Source: Bacteroidia bacterium
GTDB taxonomy: Bacteria; Bacteroidota; Bacteroidia; SpSt-205
DNA length: 64,000 bases
Assembly (NCBI GenBank): GCA_039630325.1
Contig: JBCNVG010000029.1
Coordinates: forward strand, 17,094-81,093
Reading direction: 5' to 3'
Positions 3,109 through 48,819 of this stretch are shown here, piece by piece. A program made the translations under genes and the position numbers. The notes below the pieces were generated by a model. The model had not been told where the DNA came from. It searched no databases and worked only from the letters and a program-made list of their open reading frames with translations. Each line of letters begins with the position of its first letter. Positions within the stretch are counted from its first letter, which is position 1.

Positions 3109-3578
3109 AAGTATGCCTTACTCCTTTTTTGTGAGCAACATAAAACGAGATTCTAAATCTGCTTCGACAAAAAGGGGGTTCTAAAACTTGACTTATTCAG
3201 AATCCAAGAACTTAGCATGCTATGCTTAGCCGTGAGAGAGTATGAGCCCATCCATAGACTTCTATTCATTGTAAGAGAAAGCAGGAGCCCCTCAGTTTCC
3301 AGAATATAAGTTCCAATGTGCCTCTCCTTATTAGCTTTCACCTCTCGCCACTACATCACTTGACCGAAATGATGCCCTAAGCCATAGGGGGCATGAGCGG
3401 AGGACCAAAAAAAAAATGACGATCTGAGATTGAAAAAAGGGCAACGAAATTGGGGCGCTCGAATAAAATGTAAAAGAAGCACTCCTACCTTCTTATTAGC
3501 TTATCATATGAAATACCCTTCAAAAGTAGGATCCACTTTTAGCTCACTAAGTCCCACAGAGAGCAAGGAGGGGAGAGA

Positions 3579-6516: not shown

Positions 6517-6622
6517 AGTAGTACGAGTTCGGTGAGAGTATTTGTTCTCGGTGAGATACTGGTCTCATATAGCAAAGGTACTATAAAGTGAGGGTTAAAG
6601 TAAGGAGAGGGAGCATATATCT

Positions 6623-8911: not shown

Positions 8912-8969
8912 GTTTGTTGTATGGAGGAAGTTTCATTCCAAAGATACCTTCGGCGGTTACCTTTGTTGT

Positions 8970-9962
8970 GTGATACGCGTAGTCGTGCCGGTAGCGGGAG
9001 CAGGCCAGCACCTTCGCCCTCATACCTACACTCAACCCAAACCCCTCATCCCGATCGCTGGAAAACCGTTGATTGCCCACATTGTGGATGAGCTAATCCA
9101 AGCAGGTTTCACAGAGTTTGTGTTTGTCTTAGGCTATCTGAGTGAGAAAGTCCGCGGTTATCTTCTCCAAGCGTATGAGGAGAAAATAGAAATGGGGTTT
9201 GTGTACCAGGAGCCGCGTTTGGGGTTAGCTCATGCTATTTCTCTGACGCACTCCTATTTCGCTCAGGGGGAGTCTATGATGATTGTGCTAGGGGATACGA
9301 TCTTGCGCACCGACTGGACTCAGGTGCAACAAAGCCCCCAAAGCTTAATAGGAATCGCTTCGGTGGACCGGCCGTCTGATTTTGGGATCGCAGAAGTCTC
9401 CAAGGAGGGGGTGATCCTACGAGTGGTGGAGAAGCCACGCATCCCTCGCAGCAATCAAGCACTGGTAGGCCTCTACCTTATTCATGAGACGCCGCAGCTT
9501 TTTCAGGCTATCAGTTATCTCATGGAAAATCATCTCACCTCCCACGGTGAATATCAGCTCACTGACGCCCTCCAGAGGATGATAGAAATGGGTGTCTCTC
9601 TCCGAGCTTTGCCGGTGGAGTACTGGTTAGATTGTGAGAAGAAAGAGACCCTTTTAGCCGCTAATCGGCTTCTCTTAGATAGAATGCCATCGGAGCCTCT
9701 GCCAGAATATCCCCATACAGTGATTATACCGCCTGTGTACATTCCACCCTCCTGCAAGCTCTATAGAGCGATTGTAGGGCCCTATGTCAGCTTAGGAGAA
9801 GGGGTGGAGATTCAAAATACTCTGGTACAGGATAGCATTATCGGTTCGTATAGCCGAGTTCGAAACATGCTCTTGCGTGAATCCGTCATAGGGGGCGATG
9901 CACTACTGGTAGGGCGCGAAGGGGCCCTCAACCTTGGGGAAAATACCGTCATAGAGCTATAA
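8970..9962 (+). CDS. Sugar-phosphate nucleotidyltransferase with C-terminal left-handed beta-helix (GlmU/RmlA-like), 330 aa
   Basis: N-terminal nucleotidyltransferase motif (VVPVAGAGQHLRP…KPLIPIAGKPLI). C-terminal hexapeptide-like repeats. Confidence 0.6.
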   Translation: MIRVVVPVAGAGQHLRPHTYTQPKPLIPIAGKPLIAHIVDELIQAGFTEFVFVLGYLSEKVRGYLLQAYEEKIEMGFVYQEPRLGLAHAISLTHSYFAQGESMMIVLGDTILRTDWTQVQQSPQSLIGIASVDRPSDFGIAEVSKEGVILRVVEKPRIPRSNQALVGLYLIHETPQLFQAISYLMENHLTSHGEYQLTDALQRMIEMGVSLRALPVEYWLDCEKKETLLAANRLLLDRMPSEPLPEYPHTVIIPPVYIPPSCKLYRAIVGPYVSLGEGVEIQNTLVQDSIIGSYSRVRNMLLRESVIGGDALLVGREGALNLGENTVIEL

Positions 9963-9981
9963 GGGCGGTTACCTTTGTGCC

Positions 9982-12798
9982 GTGCGGCATATTCTGATTA
10001 TCGGTAGTGGGCCCATAGTGATTGGGCAAGCGGCGGAGTTTGATTATTCTGGCTCCCAGGCTGCCAGAGCCCTGCGAAAAGAAGGCTACGTCGTACACCT
10101 CCTCAACTCCAATCCCGCCACTATCATGACAGACCCTGTGACGGCAGATTTTGTGCATCTGCTGCCTTTGACCCCAGAGAGCGTGGAGCATATTCTTCGG
10201 ACCCATCCCATAGACGCGGTACTTCCGACCATGGGGGGGCAGACGGCCCTCAACTTAGCAATGGAGTGCCATAAGCTGGGAATATGGGAGCGATATGGGA
10301 TCCGGATCATTGGAGCTTCCCTTCAAGCCATAGAGGTAGCGGAAGACCGCGAGAAGTTTCGGTTATGGGGCGAGAAGTTAGGGCTGCCTATGCTGCCAGC
10401 GGGTATTGCTCGCTCCTACCTGGAAGCGAAGGATTTGGCTCAGAAACTGGGGTATCCAGTGGTCCTTAGGCCTTCATTTACGCTGGGAGGAGCAGGTGCT
10501 CAGCTGGTCTCGTCCAAAGCGGAGTTGGAGCGGGCAGTGGGGCGCGCCCTCGCTCTCAGCCCTGTGCATGAAGTATTGGTAGAAAAAAGCGTAGCAGGCT
10601 GGAAGGAGTTTGAGCTGGAGGTCATGCGCGATAAGGACGGGAACTTCGTCGTCGTCTGCACTATCGAGAACCTTGACCCCATGGGGATTCATACAGGAGA
10701 TTCTATTACGGTGGCCCCGGCGATGACGCTGCCTGACTCCGTTTTCCAGCGCATGCGAGACTATGCGAAGGCGCTTCTTCTGTCATTTCCAGACTTCGCA
10801 GGTGGATGTAACGTCCAATTTGCCCTAAGCCCTCACAGTGAGGAAATGTACATCATAGAAATCAATCCGCGGGTGTCGCGCTCCTCTGCGTTGGCTTCTA
10901 AGGCGACAGGGTATCCTATTGCCAAAATAGCGGCTTTGTTGGCAGTGGGCAAGCGGCTCGATGAAATCACTAACCCTGTGACAGGCACTACCTCTGCCTT
11001 TTTTGAGCCGAGTATAGACTACGTCGTAGTCAAAGTGCCTCGGTGGAACTTTGACAAATTTCCCGGAGCTAATCGGCAGCTGGGCATGCAGATGCGCAGC
11101 GTCGGCGAAGCCATGGGCATCGGACGCTCTTTCATTGAAGCCCTGCAAAAAGCAGTTCAATCCTTAGAACTGCGGCGAAATGGCCTCGGAGCTGATGGCC
11201 GAGAAGTTCAAGACCTTACCCAGCTTCTCCATGGCCTGGAAAAGCCCAGTTGGAATCGGATATTTTACATCCATGATGCGTTTTTAGCTGGGGTGCCCTT
11301 GCGCACTATTCACAAGCTTACGAACATAGATGAGTGGTTCCTCCACCAGATTCAAGAGCTGGTAGAAATAGAGCGGGAACTTATGGGGCATACCTTAGAG
11401 ACTTTGACCCCCGAGCTTCTATGGCGAGCCAAAGTCGCTGGGCTAGGGGATCGCCAAATAGCACACTTAGTGCAGACGGTGGAGAGCCAGATTTTTGCGC
11501 TTCGCCAGAAATGGGGCATTCATCGGGTCTATAAGCGGGTCGATACCTGCGCAGCGGAATTTGAAGCGCAGACTCCTTATTACTACTCTACTTTCGAGCC
11601 TCAAGGAGAGGATGAGGGAGTGACCTTCCAATCGGAGCACGAGGGCAAGTCGAGACTCCTAATCTTGGGTTCTGGGCCTAACCGCATTGGTCAAGGGGTG
11701 GAGTTTGATTACTGCTGCGTTCATGGAGTACTTGCTGCTCAGAGACTGGGCTACGAAGCTATCATGGTCAACTGCAATCCCGAAACTGTCTCCACTGACC
11801 CTGATATTTCCGATCGCCTATATTTTGAGCCTGTTTTCTGGGAGCATGTATATGAAATCATTCAGCGGGAGAAGCCAGTAGGGGTCGTAGTGCAGCTCGG
11901 AGGTCAAACGCCCCTTAAGCTGGCGGAAAAGCTACACCGGTACGGCATACCCCTCATAGGTACCGACTACGAGGCCATTGATATTTCTGAGGATCGGGGG
12001 AAGTTCTCTGGGCTATTAGAAGAGCTGGGCATTCCTTATCCGCCTTTTGGGGTGGCACGCACGCCTGACGAGGCCGTCGCCCTGGCAGAACGATTAGGGT
12101 ACCCAGTACTGGTGCGTCCCAGCTATGTGCTGGGGGGCCAGCGCATGCGTATCGTCGTAGATGAAGAAGAGCTGGTAGAACAGATAGTGGCGATCCTCCG
12201 AGATATGCCTGGAAATCGGATCCTTATAGACCGATTTCTTTCAGGGGCTGTGGAAGCCGAGATTGATGCGCTCTGCGATGGAGAAAACATAGGCATCATC
12301 GGCCTCATGGAGCATATAGAACCTGCGGGAGTGCATTCGGGTGACTCTACGGCGGTGCTGCCGGCATTTTCGCTGCCAGCCGAGGTTCAGGCAACTATGC
12401 GACTGTATGCCGAGAAGCTGGCGCGCCGCCTGCGCGTACGAGGGTTTATGAATGTGCAGTATGCCTATCACCAGGGCACTGTGTATGTGATAGAGGCAAA
12501 CCTACGTGCTTCGCGCACGGTACCATTTCTGTGTAAAGCCTACAATAAGCCTTTTGTCCAGTGGGCGATGGATATTTTAGTAGGGGGCAAACGGGTGCAA
12601 GATTTCAGCTTTCCTACGGAGCTGCCTGGATATGCCTTGAAGCTGCCGGTGTTTTCGTTTGATCGATTTCCTGAGGTAGAAAAGCATTTAGGCCCCGAGA
12701 TGCGTTCTACGGGGGAGGAGATTAGATTTGTGAAGTCGTTAGATGATCCTCTATTTCGCTCGCTTTACGCCATGCGCAGTGTATATCTGAGCCGGTGA
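9982..12798 (+). CDS. carB: Carbamoyl-phosphate synthase large subunit
   Basis: Duplicated ATP-grasp halves (IIGSGPIVIGQAAEFDYSG… and ILGSGPNRIGQGVEFDYC…), 938 aa. Canonical CarB architecture. Confidence 0.95.
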   Translation: MRHILIIGSGPIVIGQAAEFDYSGSQAARALRKEGYVVHLLNSNPATIMTDPVTADFVHLLPLTPESVEHILRTHPIDAVLPTMGGQTALNLAMECHKLGIWERYGIRIIGASLQAIEVAEDREKFRLWGEKLGLPMLPAGIARSYLEAKDLAQKLGYPVVLRPSFTLGGAGAQLVSSKAELERAVGRALALSPVHEVLVEKSVAGWKEFELEVMRDKDGNFVVVCTIENLDPMGIHTGDSITVAPAMTLPDSVFQRMRDYAKALLLSFPDFAGGCNVQFALSPHSEEMYIIEINPRVSRSSALASKATGYPIAKIAALLAVGKRLDEITNPVTGTTSAFFEPSIDYVVVKVPRWNFDKFPGANRQLGMQMRSVGEAMGIGRSFIEALQKAVQSLELRRNGLGADGREVQDLTQLLHGLEKPSWNRIFYIHDAFLAGVPLRTIHKLTNIDEWFLHQIQELVEIERELMGHTLETLTPELLWRAKVAGLGDRQIAHLVQTVESQIFALRQKWGIHRVYKRVDTCAAEFEAQTPYYYSTFEPQGEDEGVTFQSEHEGKSRLLILGSGPNRIGQGVEFDYCCVHGVLAAQRLGYEAIMVNCNPETVSTDPDISDRLYFEPVFWEHVYEIIQREKPVGVVVQLGGQTPLKLAEKLHRYGIPLIGTDYEAIDISEDRGKFSGLLEELGIPYPPFGVARTPDEAVALAERLGYPVLVRPSYVLGGQRMRIVVDEEELVEQIVAILRDMPGNRILIDRFLSGAVEAEIDALCDGENIGIIGLMEHIEPAGVHSGDSTAVLPAFSLPAEVQATMRLYAEKLARRLRVRGFMNVQYAYHQGTVYVIEANLRASRTVPFLCKAYNKPFVQWAMDILVGGKRVQDFSFPTELPGYALKLPVFSFDRFPEVEKHLGPEMRSTGEEIRFVKSLDDPLFRSLYAMRSVYLSR

Positions 12799-12875: not shown

Positions 12876-13778
12876 CTATTTGCGAAAAAGAAGCATGCCG
12901 CCTGTCGTTAAGCCAGCTGCCACGGCGAGCTGCCAGGTAAGCGGTTCCTGCCCTAATATAGCAGCTAAGGCTGCAGTACCCAGTGGCTGGAAACTGATAT
13001 ACAAGGCTGTCTGCGTGGGACTAAGATAACGAAGTCCTGCATTGAGGAGGAGATAGGCCGCAACGGACATACCCAAGATGAGGTATAGCAGACTGAACCA
13101 GGCTATTGGGCTGGTAGGTAAAGCCTTCTGGAGCAGAAGGCCCAGGAAGAGGGTAGGGGTGTGTAAGATACCGCCCAGGATCATCACCCCTGTGGTGACG
13201 CCAATAGCCCCAATGCGATTTATCACTGGCGGAGAGTAGTTCAGATACCAAGCCCAGAAGCCTACTGCGGACAGAATCAGCAGCCATCCCCATCCGTGCG
13301 CACTATGCAGGAGGTTATGCCACAGGGCTAAGATGACTCCCGCATACGCCACCAAGAGCGCGGCTACCTTGCGCCACTGAAAAGCCTCTTTGTGAAATAC
13401 CCAAATCCCCAGCCAAAAAACCACTGACGGCGTGAGAGCATAAATCAGCGCTGTGGTCGCAGCGGTGGTGTATCGCAGCCCCCAGTTGAATAGAAGCTGA
13501 TTGAATAAGACGCCTACAACTGCAAGTATCCACAAGCGATGACGCAAAGCGGGGGATAGCTGAGCCCAGCTATGGGTGACCCAACCTAAGCGCCGAAAAA
13601 TCGGTAGTAGAGCAAGGTACATTATAGCGCTTCCCCACGCTCGTAGTCCAGTCAAAAATAGCGGATCAAATGTCTGGGCTGCTTCTCGTCCGACGACATA
13701 TCCGCCGCATATGATGAGGGTTTGCCCTGTCAGGGCCAAGTGACCCTTCCAGGAAGTCGAGGAGGCAGTGGAAGTCAT
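12876..13778 (-). CDS. DMT/EamA-like permease (about 10 TM). The ORF extends to 13820; the start is probably the Met overlapping the upstream stop.
   Basis: Highly hydrophobic polytopic protein with duplicated EamA-like halves. ATG overlaps the stop of the upstream nuclease gene, suggesting translational coupling. Confidence 0.5.
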   Translation of the reverse strand: MTSTASSTSWKGHLALTGQTLIICGGYVVGREAAQTFDPLFLTGLRAWGSAIMYLALLPIFRRLGWVTHSWAQLSPALRHRLWILAVVGVLFNQLLFNWGLRYTTAATTALIYALTPSVVFWLGIWVFHKEAFQWRKVAALLVAYAGVILALWHNLLHSAHGWGWLLILSAVGFWAWYLNYSPPVINRIGAIGVTTGVMILGGILHTPTLFLGLLLQKALPTSPIAWFSLLYLILGMSVAAYLLLNAGLRYLSPTQTALYISFQPLGTAALAAILGQEPLTWQLAVAAGLTTGGMLLFRK

Positions 13779-16336
13779 GAGAGACGGTCGCATAAAAGGG
13801 CAAAGTCGCAGTGAGCGCAATAGCGCCGTTGAGTAGTCATAGGAAAGTCAGTAGCTGATTTAGCCCTACCGAGGTAGGCTCGGATCTTACTCAAAGCCCG
13901 GGTTAGCTCAGCACTTAGATGTATTATTTCATCGGGGTTGTAAAGCTCGTAGGGGAGACGTGATCTCGCTTCCTCATCCTTGTCAGTAGGACGCCACCAG
14001 AGAGAGACTAATGCGGCTTGATCTATGTGTTGGCCGATTCGGTGGAGCATCCACGCATAGATGAGCAGTTGGCAGACAGGCTCGCGGTAATCTTCAGGTG
14101 TGGTATATTCAGAGTTGCAGAGCTCTTTGACCGCTTCTTTTATTGCGGTTAGAGCTTCGGTGACTTTCTGACCTTTGGCTCGGGTGGAAGATTTGAGGTC
14201 TAAAAGAAAAGTTCGTCTCCATACTTCGCCTGTATTAGAATGGAGTCCCTCGGCTTTTACTAATAAGTCTATCTGTCCATGGAGTTTTTCCTCAGGTAGC
14301 CGTATAGGAAGCTCTGGTCTAAGTAGAAATCGGAGCTTCAGCGACCTTGGAATATGGCGCCATCGTAAGATTGGGGGAAAAGGGGGAATGCTCCCGCTGG
14401 CTTCCCCAGTGAGGTCTATGAGAGTTTTGAGAAAAGGATATCCGACGTAGGACAGAATAGGGCGTAAAAGGTGGTATTTCCGTTTCCAGCGTAGGAGGTT
14501 TCCTGGCGGGGTAGAGGAGGCAAATCGTCCGCGTCGAGAGGCAAGACGATAATATATGCGGCGTGGCCCAAGTAAGTGCAGTAAGCGGCGCAGAGATAGG
14601 AAGGAAGCCTTCTGAGCGAAGAGTCTGCTGAATAGGCTATGAAGCTGAATTCCCAGTTCTGCTGCTTCGGAGGGGGGGCGTTTTTCAAGCTGGCTATCCC
14701 AATACATTCGTCGAGGGCAGGTGAGCAACTGGCTGATACGGGAAGGACTGAGCCACTCGGGCGACGAAATAGACTCCGAAGGCGTCAAAGGTGCCGGAGA
14801 AGGTAGGAGAGGAGGCGCTGGAGTAGCGGGTGGTAGGAGAGTTATGTCGGACTCGGCCTTGAAGAGTGAGAGATGATTGAGAAACTCTTCAAGTGGAGTG
14901 ACATACTCCATACCAGCGCGCCGATAGAGATAAATGTCTCTGCTTCCCCACAGGAGGAGGCTCATGAGCCGCCATTCCATCTGGTGATGAAGGTGGGGGG
15001 GGGAGAACTGCTGACGAAGTGAAGCTACCCAGAAGCTGGGACGCATCCATTTCCCTAAGGGTTCACTGGACGGCTCTATAATGAATACTGCATCATACGC
15101 CCCACCCGCTAACTGCGGCAGCCTTCCAAGATATATCTGCGTATCAGCAGACCAAGTAGACGTCATGAGAGCCTCTCCTTGGAGAAGCCTAAATAGAAAT
15201 CGCCAGCTTTCCGCCGCATTCGGCGCACTATTTTGACGCACAGTGTCATACAATAGGAAGGTCCAGCGCTCTTCTGGGGCTTCGATTGAAAGCTCTATTG
15301 GAGGCCATTCAGCGAGCACTTCTTGTACCCCAGCAGAAAAATAGGGATATAAAGCTTGTCCAACTTGGGTTTTTTCCAGTAGAGTGGGGTTCTTAGGTGA
15401 CAGCTTTGAACTGATAGCGGGATTTTGCTCTAAAAAGAATCGTATGAGCTCTGCATACTCGCCTTCGCACCATACGGCGATGCGAGCCTCAGGATGGGCG
15501 TTCATGTACTGCGAGATAGCCCGAGCAGCTTCCTCGGCTACCTCTAAGAGGGTAGTGTAAGTGTGTATGCGGGCAGTGCGGGAATAGCTATCCCATTCAA
15601 ACTGCTGAGTAGCTAAGCCTTTTTCCCCCCAAATCGCTGGTAAAACGCGCTCTAATGGCAGGAGATCCCAACTCCATACCTCGGCTCCGTAGCGTATAGC
15701 GGCTGAAAGGGTTTTTTTCACCACAGGATATACGCTGTATAAATGCAAGAATACTACGCCTTCCCACTGATCTCGTAAGCTTGTAAGCTGATGCAGGGCC
15801 GATTCAGAAAAAGCGATCCGAGCCTTCTGGAGATGAGCTGTGTACGCAGCGAGAAACTGGGGGAACTGCTGCCAAAACTCCTTTACTGCCTTAGGTGGCT
15901 TCCGGGGAAAAGGGAGAACTTTGAGCCATTCTGGGGCTTCTCCATCTGCAAAAAGCTCGAAGGTGGCTTGGATACTGCGGTGCGCTTGTAGGTTTTTCCA
16001 GTAGCTTTTCCCTTCTTCTAACGAGGAGACGCCTCGAAGGAGCTCTTCCCAATCACGTCCCAGTCGCTGGGCTGCTTCCCAGGCTTCTGCCAGGTTGGCT
16101 TCTCGGGCGATTCCCACAGCTCGAAGAGCTGCCTCATATGCCTTAAAGAGGTCCAGCGGGTTAGGCTTTCGCTGAGAAAGTCTCTCTACCCCCCAAGTAT
16201 AAATGTCAGTTATCCTATCATATCTCGTATAGGCTTTTAGAGCCTCCGCAAAGAATGGATCTGCTACTATGAAAGTGGCTCCCTGAGCGGCATATGTGCT
16301 AAAACTCTTCTTCTGAGCCGCAGTCAGTAGGCTCAT
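13775..16336 (-). CDS. AddB-like PD-(D/E)XK nuclease-family protein with C-terminal Cys cluster (RecB-type nuclease plus Fe-S), 853 aa. No Walker motifs.
   Basis: C-terminal RecB-nuclease motifs (GQIDLLV…, LLDLKS, QLLIYAW) followed by CAHCDFALLC. Long degenerate helicase-like N-terminal region without P-loop. G9 tract at 14995..15003. Confidence 0.55.
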   Translation of the reverse strand: MSLLTAAQKKSFSTYAAQGATFIVADPFFAEALKAYTRYDRITDIYTWGVERLSQRKPNPLDLFKAYEAALRAVGIAREANLAEAWEAAQRLGRDWEELLRGVSSLEEGKSYWKNLQAHRSIQATFELFADGEAPEWLKVLPFPRKPPKAVKEFWQQFPQFLAAYTAHLQKARIAFSESALHQLTSLRDQWEGVVFLHLYSVYPVVKKTLSAAIRYGAEVWSWDLLPLERVLPAIWGEKGLATQQFEWDSYSRTARIHTYTTLLEVAEEAARAISQYMNAHPEARIAVWCEGEYAELIRFFLEQNPAISSKLSPKNPTLLEKTQVGQALYPYFSAGVQEVLAEWPPIELSIEAPEERWTFLLYDTVRQNSAPNAAESWRFLFRLLQGEALMTSTWSADTQIYLGRLPQLAGGAYDAVFIIEPSSEPLGKWMRPSFWVASLRQQFSPPHLHHQMEWRLMSLLLWGSRDIYLYRRAGMEYVTPLEEFLNHLSLFKAESDITLLPPATPAPPLLPSPAPLTPSESISSPEWLSPSRISQLLTCPRRMYWDSQLEKRPPSEAAELGIQLHSLFSRLFAQKASFLSLRRLLHLLGPRRIYYRLASRRGRFASSTPPGNLLRWKRKYHLLRPILSYVGYPFLKTLIDLTGEASGSIPPFPPILRWRHIPRSLKLRFLLRPELPIRLPEEKLHGQIDLLVKAEGLHSNTGEVWRRTFLLDLKSSTRAKGQKVTEALTAIKEAVKELCNSEYTTPEDYREPVCQLLIYAWMLHRIGQHIDQAALVSLWWRPTDKDEEARSRLPYELYNPDEIIHLSAELTRALSKIRAYLGRAKSATDFPMTTQRRYCAHCDFALLCDRLS

Positions 16337-17241
16337 TTGACGACGAACTGACCGCGTCCTATTTCCACCCCCTCACAGAATACCACGACTTGATAAGTCC
16401 CTTTGATGAGCTCTTGATCTTCTGGACGGTCGTATATGGCACATACCTCTTGGGCGGTATTATTGTAGGTGAAGTTGACCTTCGCTGAGAAAGGCTGCTC
16501 CGCGTCCATCAAAGTAAAGTATCCGCTGGATTGGGCAAAGTTGGTGATGACTTTGCCAGTAGGGTCTGAGATGACGACGTAGGCCGTCCGAGGACCTGGT
16601 TCGGCGACCTGATTTTCCAGTACAGTGAAGCAAATCTTGAGCCGCTGGATGCGCCGAGGCCTGAACTCCGTGTCCCAATCTTCTTTGCCATTCTCCTTGA
16701 TGGCGGCGAAACGAAAGTTGATAGCCTTGAGGTAAGAGGCAGCTTTGACTTTGACCGCTAAGCGCTCTTTTTCTTTCAAAACCTCCTGAGTTTCTGTGGC
16801 TTGTTTTTCTATTGTCTTTTCTAACTCTGCAGTGCGAGCGCGCAGTTGCTCATTTTCTTCTTCGAGTTGGCGAATGCGTTCCTGGTACTTTTGAATATAA
16901 TAGGCCATCTGCTCTGTTTTGTAGCGCATTTCTTCGGCTTGGCGAGCAGAAATACGTCCCTGTTCTTCATATCGGCGAATTTGCGCGCGGGTGCGTTCCA
17001 GTTCTCTAGAAAGCTCCTCCACCTTACGACTTTTCTCGGCTAAGTCCATGTCCTTACGCTCAAGCTCCTGCTGCAGAGCCAGGATACGCTGGTCTAACTC
17101 CTGAATGTTTTTTTCCAGTTCTATTTTTTCCTCTTTGAGGACTGTGGTTTGCTTTTGAGCCTTTCTTAGCTGCCAATAGAGCACACCTGCGGTGATCGAA
17201 AGTAGCACGATAATTACGCCGGCGATGATACCTTGTCGCAC
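16333..17241 (-). CDS. Membrane-anchored coiled-coil protein with a C-terminal globular domain of about 130 aa, 302 aa
   Basis: N-terminal TM helix (IIAGVIIVLLSITAGVLYW), about 150 aa of E/K/R/Q-rich heptads, then non-repetitive C-terminus. Overlaps the downstream nuclease gene by 4 nt. Confidence 0.45.
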   Translation of the reverse strand: MRQGIIAGVIIVLLSITAGVLYWQLRKAQKQTTVLKEEKIELEKNIQELDQRILALQQELERKDMDLAEKSRKVEELSRELERTRAQIRRYEEQGRISARQAEEMRYKTEQMAYYIQKYQERIRQLEEENEQLRARTAELEKTIEKQATETQEVLKEKERLAVKVKAASYLKAINFRFAAIKENGKEDWDTEFRPRRIQRLKICFTVLENQVAEPGPRTAYVVISDPTGKVITNFAQSSGYFTLMDAEQPFSAKVNFTYNNTAQEVCAIYDRPEDQELIKGTYQVVVFCEGVEIGRGQFVVK

Positions 17242-17297
17242 AACGCAAAGTTAGGCGATTGGTAGTCGTATGGGTTTTTGTTAGTAGCATAAAGCAT

Positions 17298-17831
17298 ATG
17301 TCTATCGCAATCATATCTGCCACGCATAGGCCGGACAGCTATACTCGGCGCGTGGCTCTCTACCTTGCTCGGGAGGTGGAGCAGGCTGGAAATATCTACC
17401 ATTTCATAGACTTTCTGACTTTCCCCAGAGATTTTCTATTCTCAGACTTATTTGGTGGGCGGTCCGAAGCCTTTCAGCAGGTCATTCAGACTTTACAGCG
17501 TTGCCCTGTGTGGATATGGGTCATTCCAGAGTATAACGGGAGCTTTCCTGGTATCGCCAAAGTTTTTATAGATGCGCTGCCACGCGATATTTTCCATAAA
17601 AGGCGTGCGGGCCTCGTAGGCGTATCCGATGGCCGGTTTGGAAATGTTCGCGGGCTTGACCACTTCGCAGCTATTCTGCATTATTGTGGGATGGAGGTCT
17701 CTCCTTTTCGGGCTCATCTCATGCATATTCGTTCGCATTGGGATGAGGAGAAAGGAAGTCTCACTCCCGCCTATCAACAAGAGTTAAACAGATTTATGAG
17801 CTTTCTATTTTCCGGGGCTTCAGTTTCCTAG
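17298..17831 (+). CDS. NAD(P)H-dependent FMN reductase / flavodoxin-like fold protein (ORF from 17259)
   Basis: MSIAIISATHRPDSYTRRVALYL… and VIPEYNGSFPGIAKVFIDAL match the FMN_red (SsuE/YieF-like) family. Confidence 0.6.
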   Translation: MSIAIISATHRPDSYTRRVALYLAREVEQAGNIYHFIDFLTFPRDFLFSDLFGGRSEAFQQVIQTLQRCPVWIWVIPEYNGSFPGIAKVFIDALPRDIFHKRRAGLVGVSDGRFGNVRGLDHFAAILHYCGMEVSPFRAHLMHIRSHWDEEKGSLTPAYQQELNRFMSFLFSGASVS

Positions 17832-17924: not shown

Positions 17925-18506
17925 TTGTGTGATATGCGCAGTTATCGTGTGCTCCTCCTGCGAAAGTTTCCTGAAAATCCGACCTTAGGCTTCTATCGTC
18001 ATCCAAAACTTCCTAGCTCGCTTTTAGGGCGGACCCTGGTCCGGTTTCTTCATGTGACCTCTCCGGCTGATGTAGTAGCGTTTTACTACCATGAGCGGTT
18101 ATTTCGGAGCTATGAGGTCCTTTTCACTGACACGCATGTATATGATAAACGGGCCTATTATCCCTTGGAAGATATTCGAGGAGTGGAGCGAAGGGGAGAG
18201 AAACTACTTTTAGAGGTTAGCCAGTTAGGTCGTTCGCTGGTACATGAGATGCCGCTTGGCGCAAGCTTGGCTGCGGAGCTCATGGAGCGGGTGTTTGAGC
18301 TGATTATTCGAGCACCTAAGGAAGATGCCATAGAGAAAGTCATTCAAATGCGCACAGGCCTGAATGCCGCCAGTGTGCAATGGCTCGAGCTGCGCGATGA
18401 GGTGATTCGCACCATAGACCTCCTTTATGAGAAATACCAAGAAGGCAAGCTTTCTCTATTAGAATACGAGATGCTGCGGGAGGACCTACTAAGACGACTT
18501 GTCTAA
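17925..18506 (+). CDS. Hypothetical protein, 193 aa; start overlaps nothing and stop overlaps kynA by 8 nt
   Basis: ORF only. No motif recognised. Overlap with kynA suggests co-transcription. Confidence 0.35.
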   Translation: MCDMRSYRVLLLRKFPENPTLGFYRHPKLPSSLLGRTLVRFLHVTSPADVVAFYYHERLFRSYEVLFTDTHVYDKRAYYPLEDIRGVERRGEKLLLEVSQLGRSLVHEMPLGASLAAELMERVFELIIRAPKEDAIEKVIQMRTGLNAASVQWLELRDEVIRTIDLLYEKYQEGKLSLLEYEMLREDLLRRLV

Positions 18507-19521
18507 GGTGGCGAGTAGGGAGTATAGACTTTATTCCTGTTATATTTGTCTGGTGGAGGACAAGCTTGAAGCCCTTCGTCGAAAATATCGGCTCTTGGGC
18601 CAAGATATGGAGGCATATTTAGAGGGGCTTTTGTATAGTCGCTCTCTTACATATTGGGACTACATAGAGCTGGATACTCTACTTACCCTCCAGAAGCCGC
18701 GCACGGACTTTCCAGATGAGATGATCTTTATCATTTACCACCAAATCACCGAGCTCTATTTCAAGCTGGTCAAAATAGAGCTGTCTCTCCTCCTACAGGA
18801 AAGCTGGCAGGAAGAGCCGCCCCTTCTCAAGCGCTTGAGTCGCATAGCGAGTTATTTTCGTCATCTCACGCATAGCTTTGAGATTATGCTTCATGGGATG
18901 GAGTCGCCTAACTTCCTTCGGTTTCGTACGGCGCTCCTCCCAGCGAGTGGATTTCAGTCAGTGCAGTTCCGTGAGATAGAGTTGTATATGACAGGTCTCC
19001 CTCAGCTTCTTGCCCCTCATAAGCGCAGCGTAGTGGGAGAAAGTATAGAGGAGCAGTATCAACATATTTACTGGAAATACGGCAACCTAGATGCCAGAAC
19101 AGGAGAAAAAACGCTAACCCTTAGGCTATTCGAACAAAAGTATGATGGATATTTGCTGGATTTGGCTAAAAGTCTGGTAAATAAAAATGCGAACTACCGC
19201 TTAGAGGAGCTGATTAGTCGGGGGCAAGCCTCAGAGAACCTGATAAATCTCTGCCGTGAGGTAGATGTTCAGATAAACATACACTGGCGAATGGTGCATT
19301 TGCGGACTGCAGCCTATTACCTCAAGCGAGACCCTCAGACCCTTCCTTCCACGGGAGGAACCAACTGGCCGAAGTATCTGCCGCCCTACGAGCAAAAGAT
19401 TCAGTTCTTCCCCAGCCTGTGGTCGGAAGTGGAAAAGGCAGAATGGGGGCGCGGGAGCTTCTTAGAGCGGTATCAAAAAGAAGTAGAGGCCTACTGGCGC
19501 ATGAAAAGCCCTACGAGTTAG
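18499..19521 (+). CDS. kynA: Tryptophan 2,3-dioxygenase
   Basis: YWDYIELDTLLTLQKP…DEMIFIIYHQITELYFKLV, GFQSVQFREIE and HWRMVHLRTAAYY correspond to conserved TDO blocks (YLxLDxLLxxQ, DEhLFIvxHQxxELWxKL, GFQSxQYR, WRxxH). Confidence 0.75.
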   Translation: MSKVASREYRLYSCYICLVEDKLEALRRKYRLLGQDMEAYLEGLLYSRSLTYWDYIELDTLLTLQKPRTDFPDEMIFIIYHQITELYFKLVKIELSLLLQESWQEEPPLLKRLSRIASYFRHLTHSFEIMLHGMESPNFLRFRTALLPASGFQSVQFREIELYMTGLPQLLAPHKRSVVGESIEEQYQHIYWKYGNLDARTGEKTLTLRLFEQKYDGYLLDLAKSLVNKNANYRLEELISRGQASENLINLCREVDVQINIHWRMVHLRTAAYYLKRDPQTLPSTGGTNWPKYLPPYEQKIQFFPSLWSEVEKAEWGRGSFLERYQKEVEAYWRMKSPTS

Positions 19522-21870: not shown

Positions 21871-22836
21871 TTGCGATTTCGTAAAACTCCTTATGTTTGC
21901 ATCGTGCAGCTTCGGTGGCTACTCTACATTTTATTGGCTGGCTTAGTCTGGGCGCAGCAAGATCCACAGTTTACCCAGTACATGTATAATCGGTTTGGCC
22001 TGAATCCTGCTGCTGCCGGTTACGCTGGGGCCTGGCAGTTTGTGGGTTTGGGGCGGCTGCAGTGGATAGGGATTGACGGTCATCCTACCACTTTTGCAGT
22101 GAACGCCAACACACCTGTGACTTTTCTACGGGGCGGGGTAGGATTGCAGCTCATGGGTGATCAGATTGGCCCCTTCAGGACCACTGATATAAAGTTGGCT
22201 TATGCGTTTCGTTTGCCGATAGGCGCTAATGGAAGTGCTCTTCAGCTTGGTGTAGCAGGGGGGATTATGAGTAAATCTTTGGATGGGGCTTCTCTCCGTC
22301 CAGAGCAAATCCCTGATCCGACTTTATTCAATAGGGCTTCCAATCTCACGGTGCCTGATGTCGGGGCGGGGATATACTTCACCCTTCCCGAGGATAAGTT
22401 TTATGTGGGGGTATCTGCACTCCATCTTACAGAACCGCGATTACGAGATTTTACCTCTACTGGGCGTAGCAAAGTACCTAGGCATTTTTACGCTACGGCC
22501 GGTTATACCGCTCGCTTATCTGAGAATGTTCAGCTTATCCCTTCTGCCTTCTTCAAGCTTGCTCAATCTCAAATGATGGTAGAAGGAAACCTTTCTCTAC
22601 GGGTGCAGCCCGTGGTGATAGGGGCTTCTTACCGCCTGGGAGATGCGGTTTGTGCTCTATTAGGGCTGCAGGCTACAGAAGGTTTGTTTATAGGGTACTC
22701 TTATGATTATACCCTCTCTCGGTTAGGAGCGGTAACGACGGGTTCCCACGAGCTCGTGATTGTATACACGTTATCGCCTGCCTTTCGGCTTATACCTCCA
22801 GACCTCGGTGTAAGGGATAAAAAGGAATTCCGATAA
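21871..22836 (+). CDS. porP: PorP/SprF-family type IX secretion membrane protein
   Basis: AQQDPQFTQYMYNRFGLNPAAAGY is the diagnostic PorP/SprF N-terminal motif. The gene sits immediately upstream of gldK as in porPKLMN loci. Confidence 0.8.
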   Translation: MRFRKTPYVCIVQLRWLLYILLAGLVWAQQDPQFTQYMYNRFGLNPAAAGYAGAWQFVGLGRLQWIGIDGHPTTFAVNANTPVTFLRGGVGLQLMGDQIGPFRTTDIKLAYAFRLPIGANGSALQLGVAGGIMSKSLDGASLRPEQIPDPTLFNRASNLTVPDVGAGIYFTLPEDKFYVGVSALHLTEPRLRDFTSTGRSKVPRHFYATAGYTARLSENVQLIPSAFFKLAQSQMMVEGNLSLRVQPVVIGASYRLGDAVCALLGLQATEGLFIGYSYDYTLSRLGAVTTGSHELVIVYTLSPAFRLIPPDLGVRDKKEFR

Positions 22837-22854
22837 ACAAATTCACTTGCATTT

Positions 22855-23970
22855 ATGAAAACAGCCGTATATTTGCCCAAAACTAAAATGAAGGCCATGC
22901 AGATGGGCAGACTACTCTTACTCGGATTTACTTTGTTTGTACTCGCTGCATGTGGTGGCGGTCAAACAGGTGCCCGCGGTGAGCTCACGGGGGTGAAAAA
23001 TCGTCCGAAATGGGATAATCCCGTGCCTTACGGGATGGTGACAATACCTGCTGGTACATTTCACATGGGGAATAATGAGCAGGATGTCAACTATTCACAA
23101 AATGCACGGATTCGTCAGATTACGATGAGTTCTTTCCATATAGATGACACAGAGATTTCTAATAATGAGTATCGTCAGTTTCTGGACGAAGTGATAGCTG
23201 GCTCTGAGACGGCATATGCGGATAGTGTATTTGCCTTTATGGAGCGTTATTACAATAAAAAGATTGCAAATCAGGAAGAATACTTGAAGTTGGTGTATCC
23301 TGATACACAGGTATGGAATAGAGACTTTGGTAATTTTGTCTATAACGAGCCTCTGGTAGAGAATTATTATTGGCATCCTGCATTTGACGATTATCCAGTG
23401 GTAGGGGTCAACTGGTATGCGGCTCAGGCCTTCTGCTACTGGCGTACGCTCTTCTATAATGCATATCGAGCTTCTCGGGAGCTGCCTCCGATTCCGCGGA
23501 TGCGTTTGCCCACCGAAGCGGAATGGGAGTATGCTGCTCGGGGCGGGTATGAGCACAAGATATATCCGTGGCTCGGTCCTTATACAAGAAACTCCAAGGG
23601 TTGCCCTCTGGCGAATTTCAAGCCTGGTCGAGGAGATTATATCGCAGATGGATTTGAGTATACGGCGCCGGTAAAGTCTTACTTTCCTAATGACTACGGT
23701 CTATATCATACCGTGGGGAACGTGGCGGAATGGTGTGAGGATGATTTTGAGGAAACTGGCCCGATTGCGTACGCCCATGACATAAATCCTGTCTACCGTG
23801 ATCCTCGTAGGCAGAATAGGCGTAAAGTAGTACGGGGAGGTGGGTGGAATGATATCGCTTACTTCTTGTCGGTGGGGACCCGCGATTATGAATACGCGGA
23901 CACTACGAAGTCTCACATTGGTTTTCGATGTGCTTTGTCTGTGATTGGGCGGTCAGGTGCGATGAGATGA
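22855..23970 (+). CDS. gldK: Gliding motility / T9SS lipoprotein GldK (PorK), FGE-sulfatase fold
   Basis: Lipoprotein signal (LFVLAACGG). Formylglycine-generating-enzyme-like domain (…VVRGGGWND…). First gene of the K-L-M-N set. Confidence 0.85.
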   Translation: MKTAVYLPKTKMKAMQMGRLLLLGFTLFVLAACGGGQTGARGELTGVKNRPKWDNPVPYGMVTIPAGTFHMGNNEQDVNYSQNARIRQITMSSFHIDDTEISNNEYRQFLDEVIAGSETAYADSVFAFMERYYNKKIANQEEYLKLVYPDTQVWNRDFGNFVYNEPLVENYYWHPAFDDYPVVGVNWYAAQAFCYWRTLFYNAYRASRELPPIPRMRLPTEAEWEYAARGGYEHKIYPWLGPYTRNSKGCPLANFKPGRGDYIADGFEYTAPVKSYFPNDYGLYHTVGNVAEWCEDDFEETGPIAYAHDINPVYRDPRRQNRRKVVRGGGWNDIAYFLSVGTRDYEYADTTKSHIGFRCALSVIGRSGAMR

Positions 23971-24009
23971 TGAAAACTCTAAAAGTGGAACAAAATAACT
24001 TTTAATAGT

Positions 24010-24858
24010 ATGGCAGCAAAGAAGCAAGGTGCTTTTGATGCCCTTGTCCGCTCTAAGGGCTACAAGATTGCAATGAAGTACCTATATGCGTGGGGTGCTT
24101 CAGTGGTAATTATCGGGGCACTTTTCAAAATACTGCATCTCCCGGGCGCAAATGAAATGCTCATAGTGGGGCTTGGTACTGAGGCTGCAGTATTCTTTGT
24201 CTCGGGCTTAGAGCCTCTTCCAGAGGAAGAGCGGCATTGGGATTGGTCTCGCGTATTTCCGCAACTCAAAGAGGATACCGATGAGCCTATTGAGGCACCT
24301 CTGGGAGTGGGTGCTCCGGGTGGGCTAATGCCAGGATTGGCTCCGGGGATTAAGTCTTTGCAGGAGAGTAGCTTGACGCCTGACCTTCTTGAGCAGCTTG
24401 CCTCTTCTATTGAGGGATTGAGGGTGAGTGTAACCAATCTCACGGATATCACGGATGCTACTGTGGCGACAAACGAGTTTGCTGAAAAGGTGCGGGCCGC
24501 TTCTGCTAATGTTGAGCGTCTTTCCCAGAGTTATGCTGTCACGGCGGATGCTATGTCCAAAATAGCAACTTCTTTCGGAGACATACAAAACTATCAAGCT
24601 CAGATTAAGACGCTCTCCCACACTATTTCTCAACTTAATTCAGTCTATGAAAGTGAGCTTCAGGAGATGCAAAAGCATACGGCTGCGATTAGTCGCTTCT
24701 ATGGAAGCCTGGGCAAGGTTCTTTCCAGCATAGAGTCTACTACCGGAGATGCTGAGCAGCTCCATCGAGAGCTGGTAAGCTTGAATAATAACCTGCGTGC
24801 GCTGAACGCTGTATATGGTGGAATGCTCTCGGGCATATCCTCTGCCTTCCAACGGTAA
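24010..24858 (+). CDS. gldL: Gliding motility / T9SS protein GldL (PorL)
   Basis: Two N-terminal TM helices (YKIAMKYLYAWGASVVIIGALFKILHLPGANEMLIVGLGTEAAVFF) then a cytoplasmic coiled-coil domain. Position between gldK and gldM. Confidence 0.8.
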   Translation: MAAKKQGAFDALVRSKGYKIAMKYLYAWGASVVIIGALFKILHLPGANEMLIVGLGTEAAVFFVSGLEPLPEEERHWDWSRVFPQLKEDTDEPIEAPLGVGAPGGLMPGLAPGIKSLQESSLTPDLLEQLASSIEGLRVSVTNLTDITDATVATNEFAEKVRAASANVERLSQSYAVTADAMSKIATSFGDIQNYQAQIKTLSHTISQLNSVYESELQEMQKHTAAISRFYGSLGKVLSSIESTTGDAEQLHRELVSLNNNLRALNAVYGGMLSGISSAFQR

Positions 24859-24864
24859 TAGATT

Positions 24865-26574
24865 ATGGCATCTGGCAAGCTGACGCCCCGTCAGAAGATG
24901 ATTAACCTCATGTACCTCGTTCTCACAGCGCTTTTGGCGCTCAATGTGAGTGCTGAGGTACTCCAAGCTTTTCAGAATCTGGCGGACTCCCTTCAGAATA
25001 CAGCCGAGCAGTTTCAGAAAAATAACTTTGACTTAGGCGAGGCTATTAAAGCTGCCGTCAAAAAAGAAATGGAGCAAGGTAGTCGCAAAAATGAGCTCCT
25101 TATAGCCGAAGTAGATAGAGTGCGCAGTAAATCAGACAGCGTTGTAGGCGTCATACGTACCTACATAGAGGCTCTCTTTGATGAAAAAATCGCAGGAAAG
25201 GATCCTGAAACTGGACGCCTACGACGTCTAGATGAGCGGGAAAATAACTACCGCTTCTGGATGGGAAAAAATGATGCTGCTAATGGTGGGCGTGGCGAAG
25301 GTAAGGCACTAGAGATGCATCGCCTTCTTGATTCTTTTGTGGACTGGGCTAATAGGTTCTATGCTTATCACTCTAATGGGCGACTTCCCAATGGGGGTAA
25401 GGGTTTCTCTCGGTTAGTGATTGATCCGCGTGATAATCCTTATGTCAAAGAAAAAGAATCAAAAGAGAAAACATGGGAGTATTTTACCTTCCACATGACT
25501 CCTGCTGTGGCCAACCTTGCTGTTCTTTATAAGTACATCAACGATGTCTATGTGATAGAGGCAGAGCTTCTTGATCTTCTCAAATCCAAGCTTGGTCAGG
25601 TTACCTTCAAAATTGACTCTCTCGTGCTAGTGGATGCGCCTCGCTCTGAAATAGTTGTTGCGGGTATGAAGTTTGAGACTAAGGCATTTGTGGCTGCTAC
25701 TTCCTCCGATGCTAAGCCTACTTTTTCAGGAACGGGATCGATGAAGTTGGAACCAGGAGGGTATTCTGCTATATTCACGATACCGGCCTCTGCTGCGGTC
25801 ATTCCTGCTGGTCAGAGGAAAGGTAAGCAGAATTATACCATCACAGCTCGTGTTCCCAAAGCAGATGGTAGCTTCCAGGAGCTTCGTCTGCAAAAGAGCT
25901 TTGAGGTTGTGAAGCCTGAGATAGTCGTTACTTCTGCGGCCGTTCAGCTCCTATATGCTGAATGTGGTAATGACCTTAACATAGATGTGCCTGCGCTGGG
26001 TGAGCTTTATGATCCCCGTGTGACCGCCGATAATGCGCAGGTAATTCAGTCTAAACAGAGTAAGAAAAAGTTCCGGGTGGTTCCTCGTGGTGGTGCCAAG
26101 ACTTGTCGTCTAAATGTATCTACTAACACCGCTGGTCAGCTGGTGGAGTTGGGATACCTTGACTATAAGGTTGTTCCGCCTCCTCGCCCTTCTCTCCGTG
26201 TATTGGTCAATAATGAGCCCTATAATGGGGTTTCCCCTGTGCCGAGGACGGCTACGGTTCGGGTCCAGGTCCTTCCTGATGGAGACTTTGCTAAATCTCT
26301 CCCTGAGGATGCGAGGTATCTGATTGAAAAGCCTGAAATCAAGGTGGTTAAAGGTTTGGCTGGCGCATCCGTTATAGGTACGCTGCCGAATAGTAAGATT
26401 GCTACAAACCCATCGGTCGCTGTGGACCTTACTGACTATGCCAGAGGTTTGCAACCAGGCAATGTTCTCTACATTCAGTTTAGTGATATTTATAGAGTCA
26501 ACTTTCAGAATAAGCAAGTCAAGGAGAACTTCTCTATTACGGAACTTACTTTCCCCATAACTATTGGAAAATAA
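24865..26574 (+). CDS. gldM: Gliding motility / T9SS protein GldM (PorM)
   Basis: KLTPRQKMINLMYLVLTALLALNVSAEVL matches the GldM N-terminal signature. 569 aa. Confidence 0.9.
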   Translation: MASGKLTPRQKMINLMYLVLTALLALNVSAEVLQAFQNLADSLQNTAEQFQKNNFDLGEAIKAAVKKEMEQGSRKNELLIAEVDRVRSKSDSVVGVIRTYIEALFDEKIAGKDPETGRLRRLDERENNYRFWMGKNDAANGGRGEGKALEMHRLLDSFVDWANRFYAYHSNGRLPNGGKGFSRLVIDPRDNPYVKEKESKEKTWEYFTFHMTPAVANLAVLYKYINDVYVIEAELLDLLKSKLGQVTFKIDSLVLVDAPRSEIVVAGMKFETKAFVAATSSDAKPTFSGTGSMKLEPGGYSAIFTIPASAAVIPAGQRKGKQNYTITARVPKADGSFQELRLQKSFEVVKPEIVVTSAAVQLLYAECGNDLNIDVPALGELYDPRVTADNAQVIQSKQSKKKFRVVPRGGAKTCRLNVSTNTAGQLVELGYLDYKVVPPPRPSLRVLVNNEPYNGVSPVPRTATVRVQVLPDGDFAKSLPEDARYLIEKPEIKVVKGLAGASVIGTLPNSKIATNPSVAVDLTDYARGLQPGNVLYIQFSDIYRVNFQNKQVKENFSITELTFPITIGK

Positions 26575-27469
26575 CCTTATGTCTATGCTTCGTATAGTCA
26601 CTAATCTCAGCCTGTTGCTCGTCTGTGTGACGGGCATCCTGTATGCGCAGTTTCCGCCTCGAGTAGAGGATCACTTCTGGCGGAAGAAAGTCGTGCTTAC
26701 TATAGACCTGCGAGAAAAGCTAAATATGCCAATCGAGCGGGGCCAAGAAGGTTATCGCCTATATACCAACTACAGTACGGATCCTATCACCGATAAGTCT
26801 CCCTATTCTAACCGAGAAGGAGCAATAGTTGCTCTACTCAAAGGCTTCAAGGATGGGAAGTTTGTAGGCTATAGCCCGAAGAACCTCAGTCAACAGGTGT
26901 CATTTGAGGATTTTGATGCCCGCTCTCGGCGGATCGAAGCTGGTGAGCAAGTTCCCACTGAGGAGGGGGTGGGGGGTGAAGATGAGTTTGGGGGAGATGA
27001 GTTTGGGGGAGATGAGTTCGGGGGAGCGGATGAGTTGGGCGGTGGGATAGATGCAGCCCCTGCTTCTGAGGGTGCCGTTACCCCTTCTGCTGAAAAAGGG
27101 TTCCCTTATCTGAAATACTATCGTACTAAGATTCGTGTGATAGAGGATCGTATTTTTGATAAAAACCGCTCCGACATGTACTATGACATACAGTACATTT
27201 GCTTAGTGCAGGTTGATCCTAAGGGTGCGCTCGCTGATGAGGATGCTGTATGCTTCCGATATAAGGATGTGATGGATGTTATGGACGATACACAGTGGCG
27301 AAATCGTGCCAATGACGCGGAGGATCGTTCTATGCGCGAGATTATAGAATTGCGCCGTTTTTATGGTTATGTCACAGTCGTTTCTGGTGAGGAGTCTAGG
27401 ACGTTGGATGAAGCAGAGCTGCGTCGTCAGCAAATGATAGAGTTTGAGCACCACCTTTGGACTTTCTGA
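26564..27469 (+). CDS. gldN: Gliding motility / T9SS protein GldN (PorN), with an inserted acidic Gly-rich repeat
   Basis: Size and position after gldM (11-nt overlap). Signal peptide. Contains a (GDEFG)n insert at aa 130-160 or so. Confidence 0.7.
   Translation: MENNLMSMLRIVTNLSLLLVCVTGILYAQFPPRVEDHFWRKKVVLTIDLREKLNMPIERGQEGYRLYTNYSTDPITDKSPYSNREGAIVALLKGFKDGKFVGYSPKNLSQQVSFEDFDARSRRIEAGEQVPTEEGVGGEDEFGGDEFGGDEFGGADELGGGIDAAPASEGAVTPSAEKGFPYLKYYRTKIRVIEDRIFDKNRSDMYYDIQYICLVQVDPKGALADEDAVCFRYKDVMDVMDDTQWRNRANDAEDRSMREIIELRRFYGYVTVVSGEESRTLDEAELRRQQMIEFEHHLWTF
26981..27040 (+). repeat. In-frame 15-bp tandem repeat (gatgagtttggggga, 3 copies plus a degenerate fourth) encoding (DEFGG)n inside gldN
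   Basis: Direct reading: 26981-26995 and 26996-27010 are identical. 27011-27025 has 1 mismatch. 27026-27040 is degenerate. Confidence 0.85.
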
Positions 27470-27529: not shown

Positions 27530-27544
27530 CTTTACATTTGCCTC

Positions 27545-33831: not shown

Positions 33832-33877
33832 ACCCGTAAAATACGCACTCCGATGTAGATATGCTTATCTTTGAGCC

Positions 33878-40935: not shown

Positions 40936-40979
40936 ACTTCAAATGTAAAGCAAAAAAGTGTATCCCCTAACTTCGCAGG

Positions 40980-48781: not shown

Positions 48782-48819
48782 AGAGCAAAGGTACAGAGAA
48801 TAACTCATTTATTTGTAGA

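Follow-up and report, generated by a model that had tools for sequence, protein, structure and literature searches.

A strongly diverged, shortened nuclease of predicted AddB type in a conserved operon of Bacteroidia

The analyzed window is a 64,000-nucleotide (nt) stretch of genomic DNA from a Bacteroidia bacterium (GenBank assembly GCA_039630325.1, contig JBCNVG010000029.1, positions 17,094 to 81,093 of the forward strand). This study concerns three genes on its minus strand and, in particular, the nuclease encoded by the second of them. According to the list of open reading frames (ORFs), gene 1 (positions 16333-17241) has a GTG start and encodes a coiled-coil membrane protein of 302 amino acids (aa), and the nuclease gene (13775-16336) encodes a protein of 853 aa. 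Gene 3 (12876..13778) encodes a 300-aa permease of the drug/metabolite transporter (DMT) type with a Pfam EamA match, and its ATG start lies inside an ATGA. An earlier note, made from the letters of this DNA alone, described a three-gene minus-strand operon joined by 4-nt overlaps, and ATGA stop/start overlaps of this length were found at both junctions. The overlap between the nuclease and EamA genes requires EamA translation to begin at ATG 13778 instead of TTG 13820, and the longest EamA ORF (12876-13820, TTG start) is probably an over-extension. From its sequence and a predicted structure, the 853-aa protein is assigned to the AddB type, with an inactive scaffold resembling superfamily 1 (SF1) helicases and a RecB-family nuclease domain carrying a putative four-cysteine Fe-S site. 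Compared with canonical AddB, the protein has diverged strongly and lacks about 90 aa.

The RecB-family nuclease motifs GQIDLL (D690), LLDLKS (D713, K715), and QLLIYAW (Q756, Y760) are present in the 853-aa protein, and cysteines C540, C840, C843, and C849 form a C…CxxCx5C arrangement. No Walker A motif was found in it. All five catalytic residues and all four cysteines are invariant in an alignment of 15 homologues, as are more than 50 positions within the N-terminal 500 residues. The motifs, the terminal cysteine cluster, and the lack of Walker A had been pointed out in the earlier note and were confirmed here. That the catalytic and cluster residues are invariant throughout the family speaks for a retained function. 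The only Pfam match, apart from a sub-threshold one to Cas4, is to PDDEXK_1 (residues 529-850, E 4.8e-13).

Two parts can be predicted in the protein. The N-terminal part of about 500 aa (14837..16336, minus strand) would, as in AddB and RecC, provide a UvrD/Rep-like SF1 helicase scaffold that is inactivated and lacks Walker A. The C-terminal domain (aa 529-853; 13775..14752, minus strand) would be a RecB-family PD-(D/E)XK nuclease, with C540 and C840-x2-C843-x5-C849 being of the Fe-S type known for AddB, Cas4, and Dna2. The AlphaFold model of the protein has a mean predicted local distance difference test score of 82.5. Foldseek matches for this model include AdnA (E 1.3e-10) and AddB (E 4.6e-10), as well as AddA, RecC, Rep, and UvrD. 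The N-terminal part of the model resembles AddB, AdnAB, RecC, Rep, and UvrD, and the nuclease part resembles Dna2 and Cas4. In total, three features by which an AddB can be recognized were found: a PD-(D/E)XK domain with the residues D, D-x-K, and Q-x3-Y; four cysteines flanking the nuclease domain, which from the sequence form a putative 4Fe-4S site; and, in the predicted model, an N-terminal inactivated SF1 helicase fold. A fourth feature, linkage to addA, was found neither in the window nor in about 302 kb of 14 lineages, and this linkage is itself not universal.

An exhaustive search with a hidden Markov model (HMM) in 1.84 billion representative proteins yielded 16 full-length relatives of the nuclease at E < 1e-30. 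All named members of this subfamily of 16 representatives are annotated as Bacteroidia metagenome-assembled genomes (MAGs), several of them from hot springs. The next tier of the same search consists of proteins of about 920-980 aa (E 1e-11 to 1e-4), which themselves have weak matches to TIGR03623 and addB_alphas. Twenty such AddB-like proteins from Bacteroidota were aligned (alignment A2, about 940 aa) and compared by hhalign with the alignment of the nuclease subfamily (A1). The two profiles matched with a probability of 99.6% (E 7.6e-25) over 775 colinear columns, nuclease residues 22-852 being aligned with A2 positions 23-945 at an identity of about 14%. The A2 profile, in turn, matches Bacillus subtilis AddB (3u44_B) at E 1.2e-10. 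In A2, D815 and K817 are invariant and Y816 is nearly so, forming a DYK motif. No similarity of the nuclease family to an AddA profile was found, and a sequence search of the PDB with the A1 profile gave no significant match (Dna2, E 0.5; Cas4, E 0.7). Together with the fold match, the whole-length alignment to Bacteroidota AddB supports the AddB-like identity suggested in the earlier note. The nuclease is most likely a clade-specific, unusual member of the known AddB family and not a new system.

The closest characterized system for comparison is that of Bacteroides fragilis. AddB of this organism is 16% identical to B. subtilis AddB, is encoded by a gene adjoining addA, and is required jointly with AddA for repair (PMC2887965). 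It has cysteines C674 and C946/C949/C955 and a DYK nuclease motif (PMC2887965), and A2 shares this cysteine spacing and the motif. The 853-aa protein is similar to B. fragilis AddB (BF2191), a subunit of the AddAB helicase-nuclease, and to the Bacteroidota AddB-like family of about 920-980 aa in its whole-length colinear homology, in the lack of Walker A on both sides, and in the C-terminal RecB-type nuclease (D…D-x-K, Q…Y) with one upstream Cys and a CxxCx5C at the C-terminus. The spacing of C540 and C840/C843/C849 is the same as in B. fragilis AddB. The differences from Bacteroidota AddB are also clear. The length difference of about 90 aa mainly reflects a deletion midway through the helicase-like part, and the subfamily is confined to the 16 cluster representatives among the 1.84 billion proteins. 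Moreover, its genes are never near addA, whereas canonical genes are linked to addA at 26 of 41 loci, and they lie in an operon with coiled-coil, EamA, and TadA-like genes, which canonical addB genes never do.

Other relatives are more distant. B. subtilis AddB (PDB 3U44/3U4Q/4CEH, chain B) has 1166 aa, compared with 853 aa here, and it retains an ATP-binding Walker A site, which is used in Chi recognition. RecC of RecBCD has neither an active nuclease nor an Fe-S cluster, and AdnA and AdnB of the mycobacterial AdnAB carry ATPase motifs; both resemble the analyzed protein in fold only. The C-terminal nuclease domain can be compared with the Fe-S PD-(D/E)XK nucleases Cas4, Dna2, and Exo5. Cas4 is a protein of about 200 aa encoded beside cas1 and cas2, whereas the domain analyzed here makes up the last third of an AddB-like protein of 853 aa. 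All scores for Cas4 were under the curated cut-offs (TIGR00372, 21.4 bits versus 65; PF01930, 20.3 versus 22.7), and identity as Cas4 was rejected on these scores, on the size of 853 aa, and on the genomic context. No cas genes were found among the scanned ORFs of at least 500 aa or in the genes on either side of the trio; other parts of the window were not scanned for cas genes or CRISPR arrays.

The earlier note regarded the missing Walker motifs and the lack of a neighboring helicase gene as distinctive for this protein. In the window, no UvrD/AddA-like ORF was found by a home-built AddA HMM. Besides the nuclease, the window contains 11 ORFs of at least 500 aa; 10 of them were scanned with Pfam, RecG being the only helicase, and the eleventh is CarB (9982-12798). 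Thus, the absence of a UvrD/AddA-type helicase gene nearby holds, and no helicase was found within 10 kb of the nuclease in any lineage. However, neither property sets the protein apart from its relatives. Walker A was found in none of 20 canonical AddB sequences of Bacteroidota. Additionally, 80 canonical AddB loci were taken from metagenomes and analyzed with the same AddA HMM. In 32 of the 80 loci, an upstream gene on the same strand encodes a protein of roughly 1050 aa that contains UvrD helicase domains; a PD-(D/E)XK match was found in one of the six such AddA-like proteins scanned with Pfam. A full 6-kb upstream flank was available for 41 loci; addA was present in 26 of these and absent in 15. 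Because canonical AddB lacks Walker A and addA is missing from the 6-kb flank at 15 of these 41 loci, an "orphan" and "helicase-dead" AddB is nothing unusual in Bacteroidota.

A search of a protein database with a profile of 20 AddA proteins gave 7999 matches, the best 120 of which were swamped by Flavobacteriaceae, so that this search was uninformative for the clade studied here. The divergence rates of AddA and AddB are similar in the canonical loci, and this comparison was not used. At many canonical loci of Bacteroidota, one or two unrelated genes lie between addA and addB, such as a gene for an OmpA/TSP3 protein in locus L047 and for an APH/RapZ-C protein in L024.

Conservation of the operon was analyzed in the genomes carrying members of the nuclease subfamily. 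A profile scan of genome contigs with the family alignment found 10 loci, all in the same clade, the patterns being too specific to reach distant contexts. Whether the neighbors are conserved together with the nuclease had been raised in the earlier note; the trio turned out to be co-conserved as an operon across the whole subfamily. Its core, with ATGA-type junctions, is kept in 14 lineages while the flanking genes change. The coiled-coil gene, belonging to DUF8428/DUF8429, directly precedes the nuclease gene in 13 of the 14 lineages, and the EamA gene directly follows it in every subfamily locus reaching far enough. The upstream flank is occupied by an FMN reductase gene in L001, L002, and L004 versus SecA, DUF2480, or OsmC genes in L018, L099, and L100; carB or other genes are found downstream. 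The gene order is kept even in L099, whose nuclease (P0074) reaches no better than E 5e-11 with the family profile.

In seven lineages (L002, L004, L011, L014, L018, L099, and L100), the EamA gene is followed by a gene for a 145-aa dCMP/TadA-type deaminase, usually overlapping it by 4 nt. This gene is located at positions 11440-11877 in L002, 13311-13748 in L099, and 13386-13820 in L100. It was not found after the EamA gene in the sub-lineage of the window, nor anywhere in the 64-kb window; this sub-lineage has lost the gene from the position after EamA. Since the TadA-like gene lies in the same operon, the operon mixes unrelated functions. The operon is clade-specific and conserved, its functions are probably mixed, and the evidence leans against the proteins of the trio working together.

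The product of gene 1 has one N-terminal transmembrane (TM) segment (aa 4-22) and a coiled coil extending to about aa 169. In its model, long helices cover residues 2-169 and a confident beta-sandwich resembling immunoglobulin (Ig) domains covers residues 173-301. The fold matches for this domain, which include the Ig domain of AlkC (E 4.7e-5), PA1606, macroglobulin MG domains, and ApaG, point to a generic Ig-like sandwich. The assignment to DUF8428/DUF8429 (PF28532/PF28533) comes from a precomputed PF28532 tag on the 100%-identical protein P0017 and from both tags on homologues. Of the earlier description of a TM-anchored coiled-coil protein with an unrecognized globular domain of about 130 aa, the anchor and the coiled coil stand, and the domain is modeled as an Ig-like sandwich. 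Judged by the flanking charges, the coiled coil could be on either side of the membrane. In other Bacteroidota, distant members of the coiled-coil family are encoded beside phosphofructokinase (PFK) and surface-protein genes, without the nuclease or EamA. A literature search on DUF8428/DUF8429 and on the KatS3mg MAGs gave nothing useful. The permease encoded by gene 3, also described as EamA-like in the earlier note, has two EamA repeats (PF00892, E 1.2e-26, above the cut-off) and 8-10 hydrophobic segments in its hydropathy profile.

A promoter box of the Bacteroidota -7 type, TAACTTTG, is located at 17246..17253 on the minus strand, 4 nt upstream of the GTG start of gene 1. The consensus TAnnTTTG is the -7 element known for Bacteroides promoters. 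All 13 homologous loci have the box at an identical offset (-12 to -5), even those whose upstream genes differ. No box followed by N4 and RTG was found inside the nuclease or EamA genes. Because of the conserved box before the first start and the lack of such boxes inside the two downstream genes, the three genes most likely form one transcription unit, with the transcription start predicted so close to gene 1 that its mRNA would be leaderless or nearly so. In L011 (MAG SKYG92), the nuclease, EamA, and TadA-like genes are present, and no coiled-coil gene was found at the locus (9880-10000). There, the nuclease gene is preceded by TATCTTTG, 6 nt, and ATG, and by the same A-rich element (aagaacaaaaa) that precedes the coiled-coil gene in other loci. 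Apparently, the first gene was lost by deletion and its promoter was left in place. Scans of the region 12.5-17.6 kb of the window for Rfam families, repeats, sigma-70 promoters, and terminators gave nothing above chance.

We consider it somewhat probable that the nuclease is a divergent, shortened AddB acting with an unlinked motor subunit and that its operon partners are co-expressed housekeeping genes. The nuclease would then act as AddB does in AddAB, binding a DNA end together with an SF1 motor (AddA or UvrD-like) encoded elsewhere, and would cut one unwound strand during resection of a double-strand break. The operon would be transcribed from the TAnnTTTG promoter abutting the first start codon, and the products of the other genes would not be parts of one machine. 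Among the readings offered in the earlier note, its option of a housekeeping AddB with the helicase encoded elsewhere fits best.

Several results weigh against this explanation. None of the NCBIfam models for AddB (addB_Gpos, addB_alphas, rexB, and TIGR03623) matched the nuclease at E <= 1, and no AddA/UvrD-like ORF was found in the 302 kb or so around the 14 subfamily lineages. No EamA, TadA-like, or DUF8428 neighbor was found at any of the 80 canonical AddB loci, and thus positional orthology was not found. The strict retention of the gene order exceeds what is usual for simple synteny. Additionally, the nuclease evolves much faster than its neighbors. Between the window and L001, identity is 92.5% for CarB, 89% for the coiled-coil protein, 88% for the nucleoside triphosphate (NTP) transferase, 84% for EamA, 81% for IspF, and 74% for the FMN reductase, falling to 61% for the nuclease; across the clade, it ranges within 60-89% for the coiled-coil protein, 58-84% for EamA, and 25-61% for the nuclease. 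Finally, disrupted alleles were found. The L102 contig (SRR28200751) is 99.7% identical to the window without indels, and its nuclease gene contains W113S, replacing an otherwise invariant Trp, and the nonsense substitution Q117* (positions 1425 and 1436 of L102, corresponding to 15999 and 15988 of the window); in L101 (SRR28200752), the gene is intact. In the more distant lineage L018 (4444-7018), a frame change splits the homologous gene, which is annotated as two genes with products of 394 and 458 aa. Such frequent disruption is unexpected for a core repair subunit.

These disrupted alleles would agree with a different explanation, in which AddA was lost in the clade and the AddB homologue is a relic, decaying or left with a minor nuclease role, that is carried inside an otherwise needed operon. 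The same can be said of the nuclease being the fastest-evolving gene of the neighborhood, of its shortening by about 90 aa relative to canonical AddB, and of the lack of an AddA nearby. However, full-length open frames of 815-887 aa are retained in the other lineages across deep divergence; the catalytic D, D, K, Q, and Y, the four Cys, and many N-terminal Trp, Pro, and Gly residues are invariant; and the model folds confidently. Moreover, the disruptions in L102 and L018 were each seen in one metagenome assembly and could reflect errors of assembly or rare variants. We regard this relic explanation as unlikely. Decidedly unlikely, in our opinion, is that the coiled-coil protein, the AddB-derived nuclease, and EamA form one helicase-independent membrane module for DNA processing, uptake, export, or defense. 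The overlapping gene order kept in 13 of 14 lineages amid reshuffled flanks, even where the nuclease has diverged to E 5e-11, would fit such a module, as would the lack of a helicase within 10 kb in any lineage and a nuclease evolving as fast as arms-race proteins; the best match of the Ig-like domain, albeit a weak one, is to the DNA-contacting Ig domain of AlkC. Nevertheless, DUF8428/DUF8429 proteins occur elsewhere without the nuclease or EamA, L011 keeps the promoter and the other three genes without the coiled-coil gene, and the operon also holds a deaminase of unrelated housekeeping function. The coiled-coil protein and EamA show the degree of conservation typical of housekeeping proteins, the orientation of the coiled coil is ambiguous, and an Ig-like domain with conserved cysteines also fits a periplasmic protein. 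Overlaps of 4 nt are normal in this genome, being found at no fewer than 10 same-strand junctions of the window. The only PADLOC hits were similarity of the nuclease to the Cas4 domain and, for gene 1, coiled-coil noise (JetC, LmuB, and PbeC, E > 1e-6), with no match for EamA, and no signs of mobile elements or unusual composition were found around the trio, G+C being even across the locus region. The membrane-associated DNA-processing or defense module proposed as one option in the earlier note is thus not supported: neither defense-system models nor a defense-type neighborhood were found, the neighbors being carB, ispF, gld genes, and recG. Defense as a function was rejected on scores under the cut-offs, protein size, and genomic context. 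Very unlikely, finally, is that the clade lost AddA and its AddB became a helicase-independent Fe-S nuclease working with the coiled-coil Ig protein and the DMT permease in membrane DNA processing or a new kind of defense, although this would explain the coupling of the trio amid moving surroundings and the extreme divergence of the nuclease.

The last explanation concerns expression. The earlier note pointed to a G9/C9 homopolymer in the nuclease gene, which is indeed present (14995..15003; G9 on the plus strand, C9 on the coding strand), and proposed it as a potential slipped-strand on/off switch, which would make the nuclease and the downstream EamA phase-variable. In favor of such a switch, homopolymers of at least 9 nt were seen three times in the window against about 0.8 expected per 64 kb, and some homologues carry runs of 8-9 nt elsewhere. 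However, one of the three, C9 at 53886-53894, lies inside the housekeeping gene recG (52019-54124, minus strand); the remaining one, A10 at 3407-3416, is intergenic, between 3108 and 3579. The tract simply reads TCC-CCC-CCC-CAC for Ser-Pro-Pro-His (aa 445-448) and is not conserved. The closest homologue, with 61% identity and the same SPPH peptide, reads TCCCCTCCACAC at this site, and no run was found there in any other homologue examined. Two independent Logan assemblies of the same organism (SRR28200752 and SRR28200751) agree with the window in a tract length of exactly 9 nt, so that neither the conserved tract nor the variable length expected of a phase-variable gene was found. In the single inactivated allele seen, the nonsense substitution is at a different place in the gene. 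An origin of the L018 frame change at this site was also considered and rejected, since the change falls at about residue 336-352 of the window protein, outside aa 445-448. A switching role of the tract is extremely improbable.

With the nuclease recognized as an AddB, a name and a likely role can be given to a small family so far annotated as "PD-(D/E)XK nuclease family protein". This family also shows that AddB can drift to about 14% identity and lose 90 aa with its fold and catalytic residues kept. Should AddA indeed be missing from the genomes of the clade, the nuclease would be the first protein of AddB type to work without a motor subunit, and the conserved operon would indicate new partners of the nuclease.

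The promoter box is not restricted to the analyzed operon. In total, 12 sites of the form TAnnTTTG-N4-(A/G)TG were found in the window, compared with 0.82 expected, and none of 100 shuffled sequences reached 12. These sites are located at 6566-6580, 8958-8972, 9970-9984, 17239-17253, 18541-18555, 21892-21906, 27194-27208, 27533-27547, 33866-33880, 37617-37631, 40933-40947, and 48779-48793. In most of them, the final (A/G)TG is the start of an ORF or an internal start codon in the same frame. For example, a start at 18553 yields the 322-aa length of the Trp dioxygenase as called in L001. Leaderless or near-leaderless mRNAs, often with GTG starts, seem to be widely used by this organism. Because sites of this form end on in-frame internal starts, several of the longest-ORF starts in the window are probably over-extended, and a TAnnTTTG box 4 nt before a start codon may help gene-start annotation in this group.

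The setting of the trio is housekeeping chromosome. The surrounding genes include carB, an NTP transferase gene, ispF, gldM with adjoining genes for gliding and type IX secretion, genes for a Clp ATPase and a Mg-chelatase-like ATPase, and recG. An NADPH-dependent FMN reductase gene (17298..17831, plus strand; Pfam FMN_red, E 6.3e-23) is divergent from the operon. Between this gene and the Trp dioxygenase gene, a 193-aa ORF without a Pfam match is located at 17925-18506 on the plus strand. In L001 and L101, a called 190-aa gene, also without Pfam hits, occupies this position, the correspondence being by position only. The gliding and type IX secretion cluster (21871-27469), by which the organism can be placed in Bacteroidota, encodes PorP/SprF, a protein with an FGE-sulfatase domain (GldK-like), GldL, GldM, and the product of the next ORF, probably GldN. 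The order of this cluster is identical in L001 and L101.

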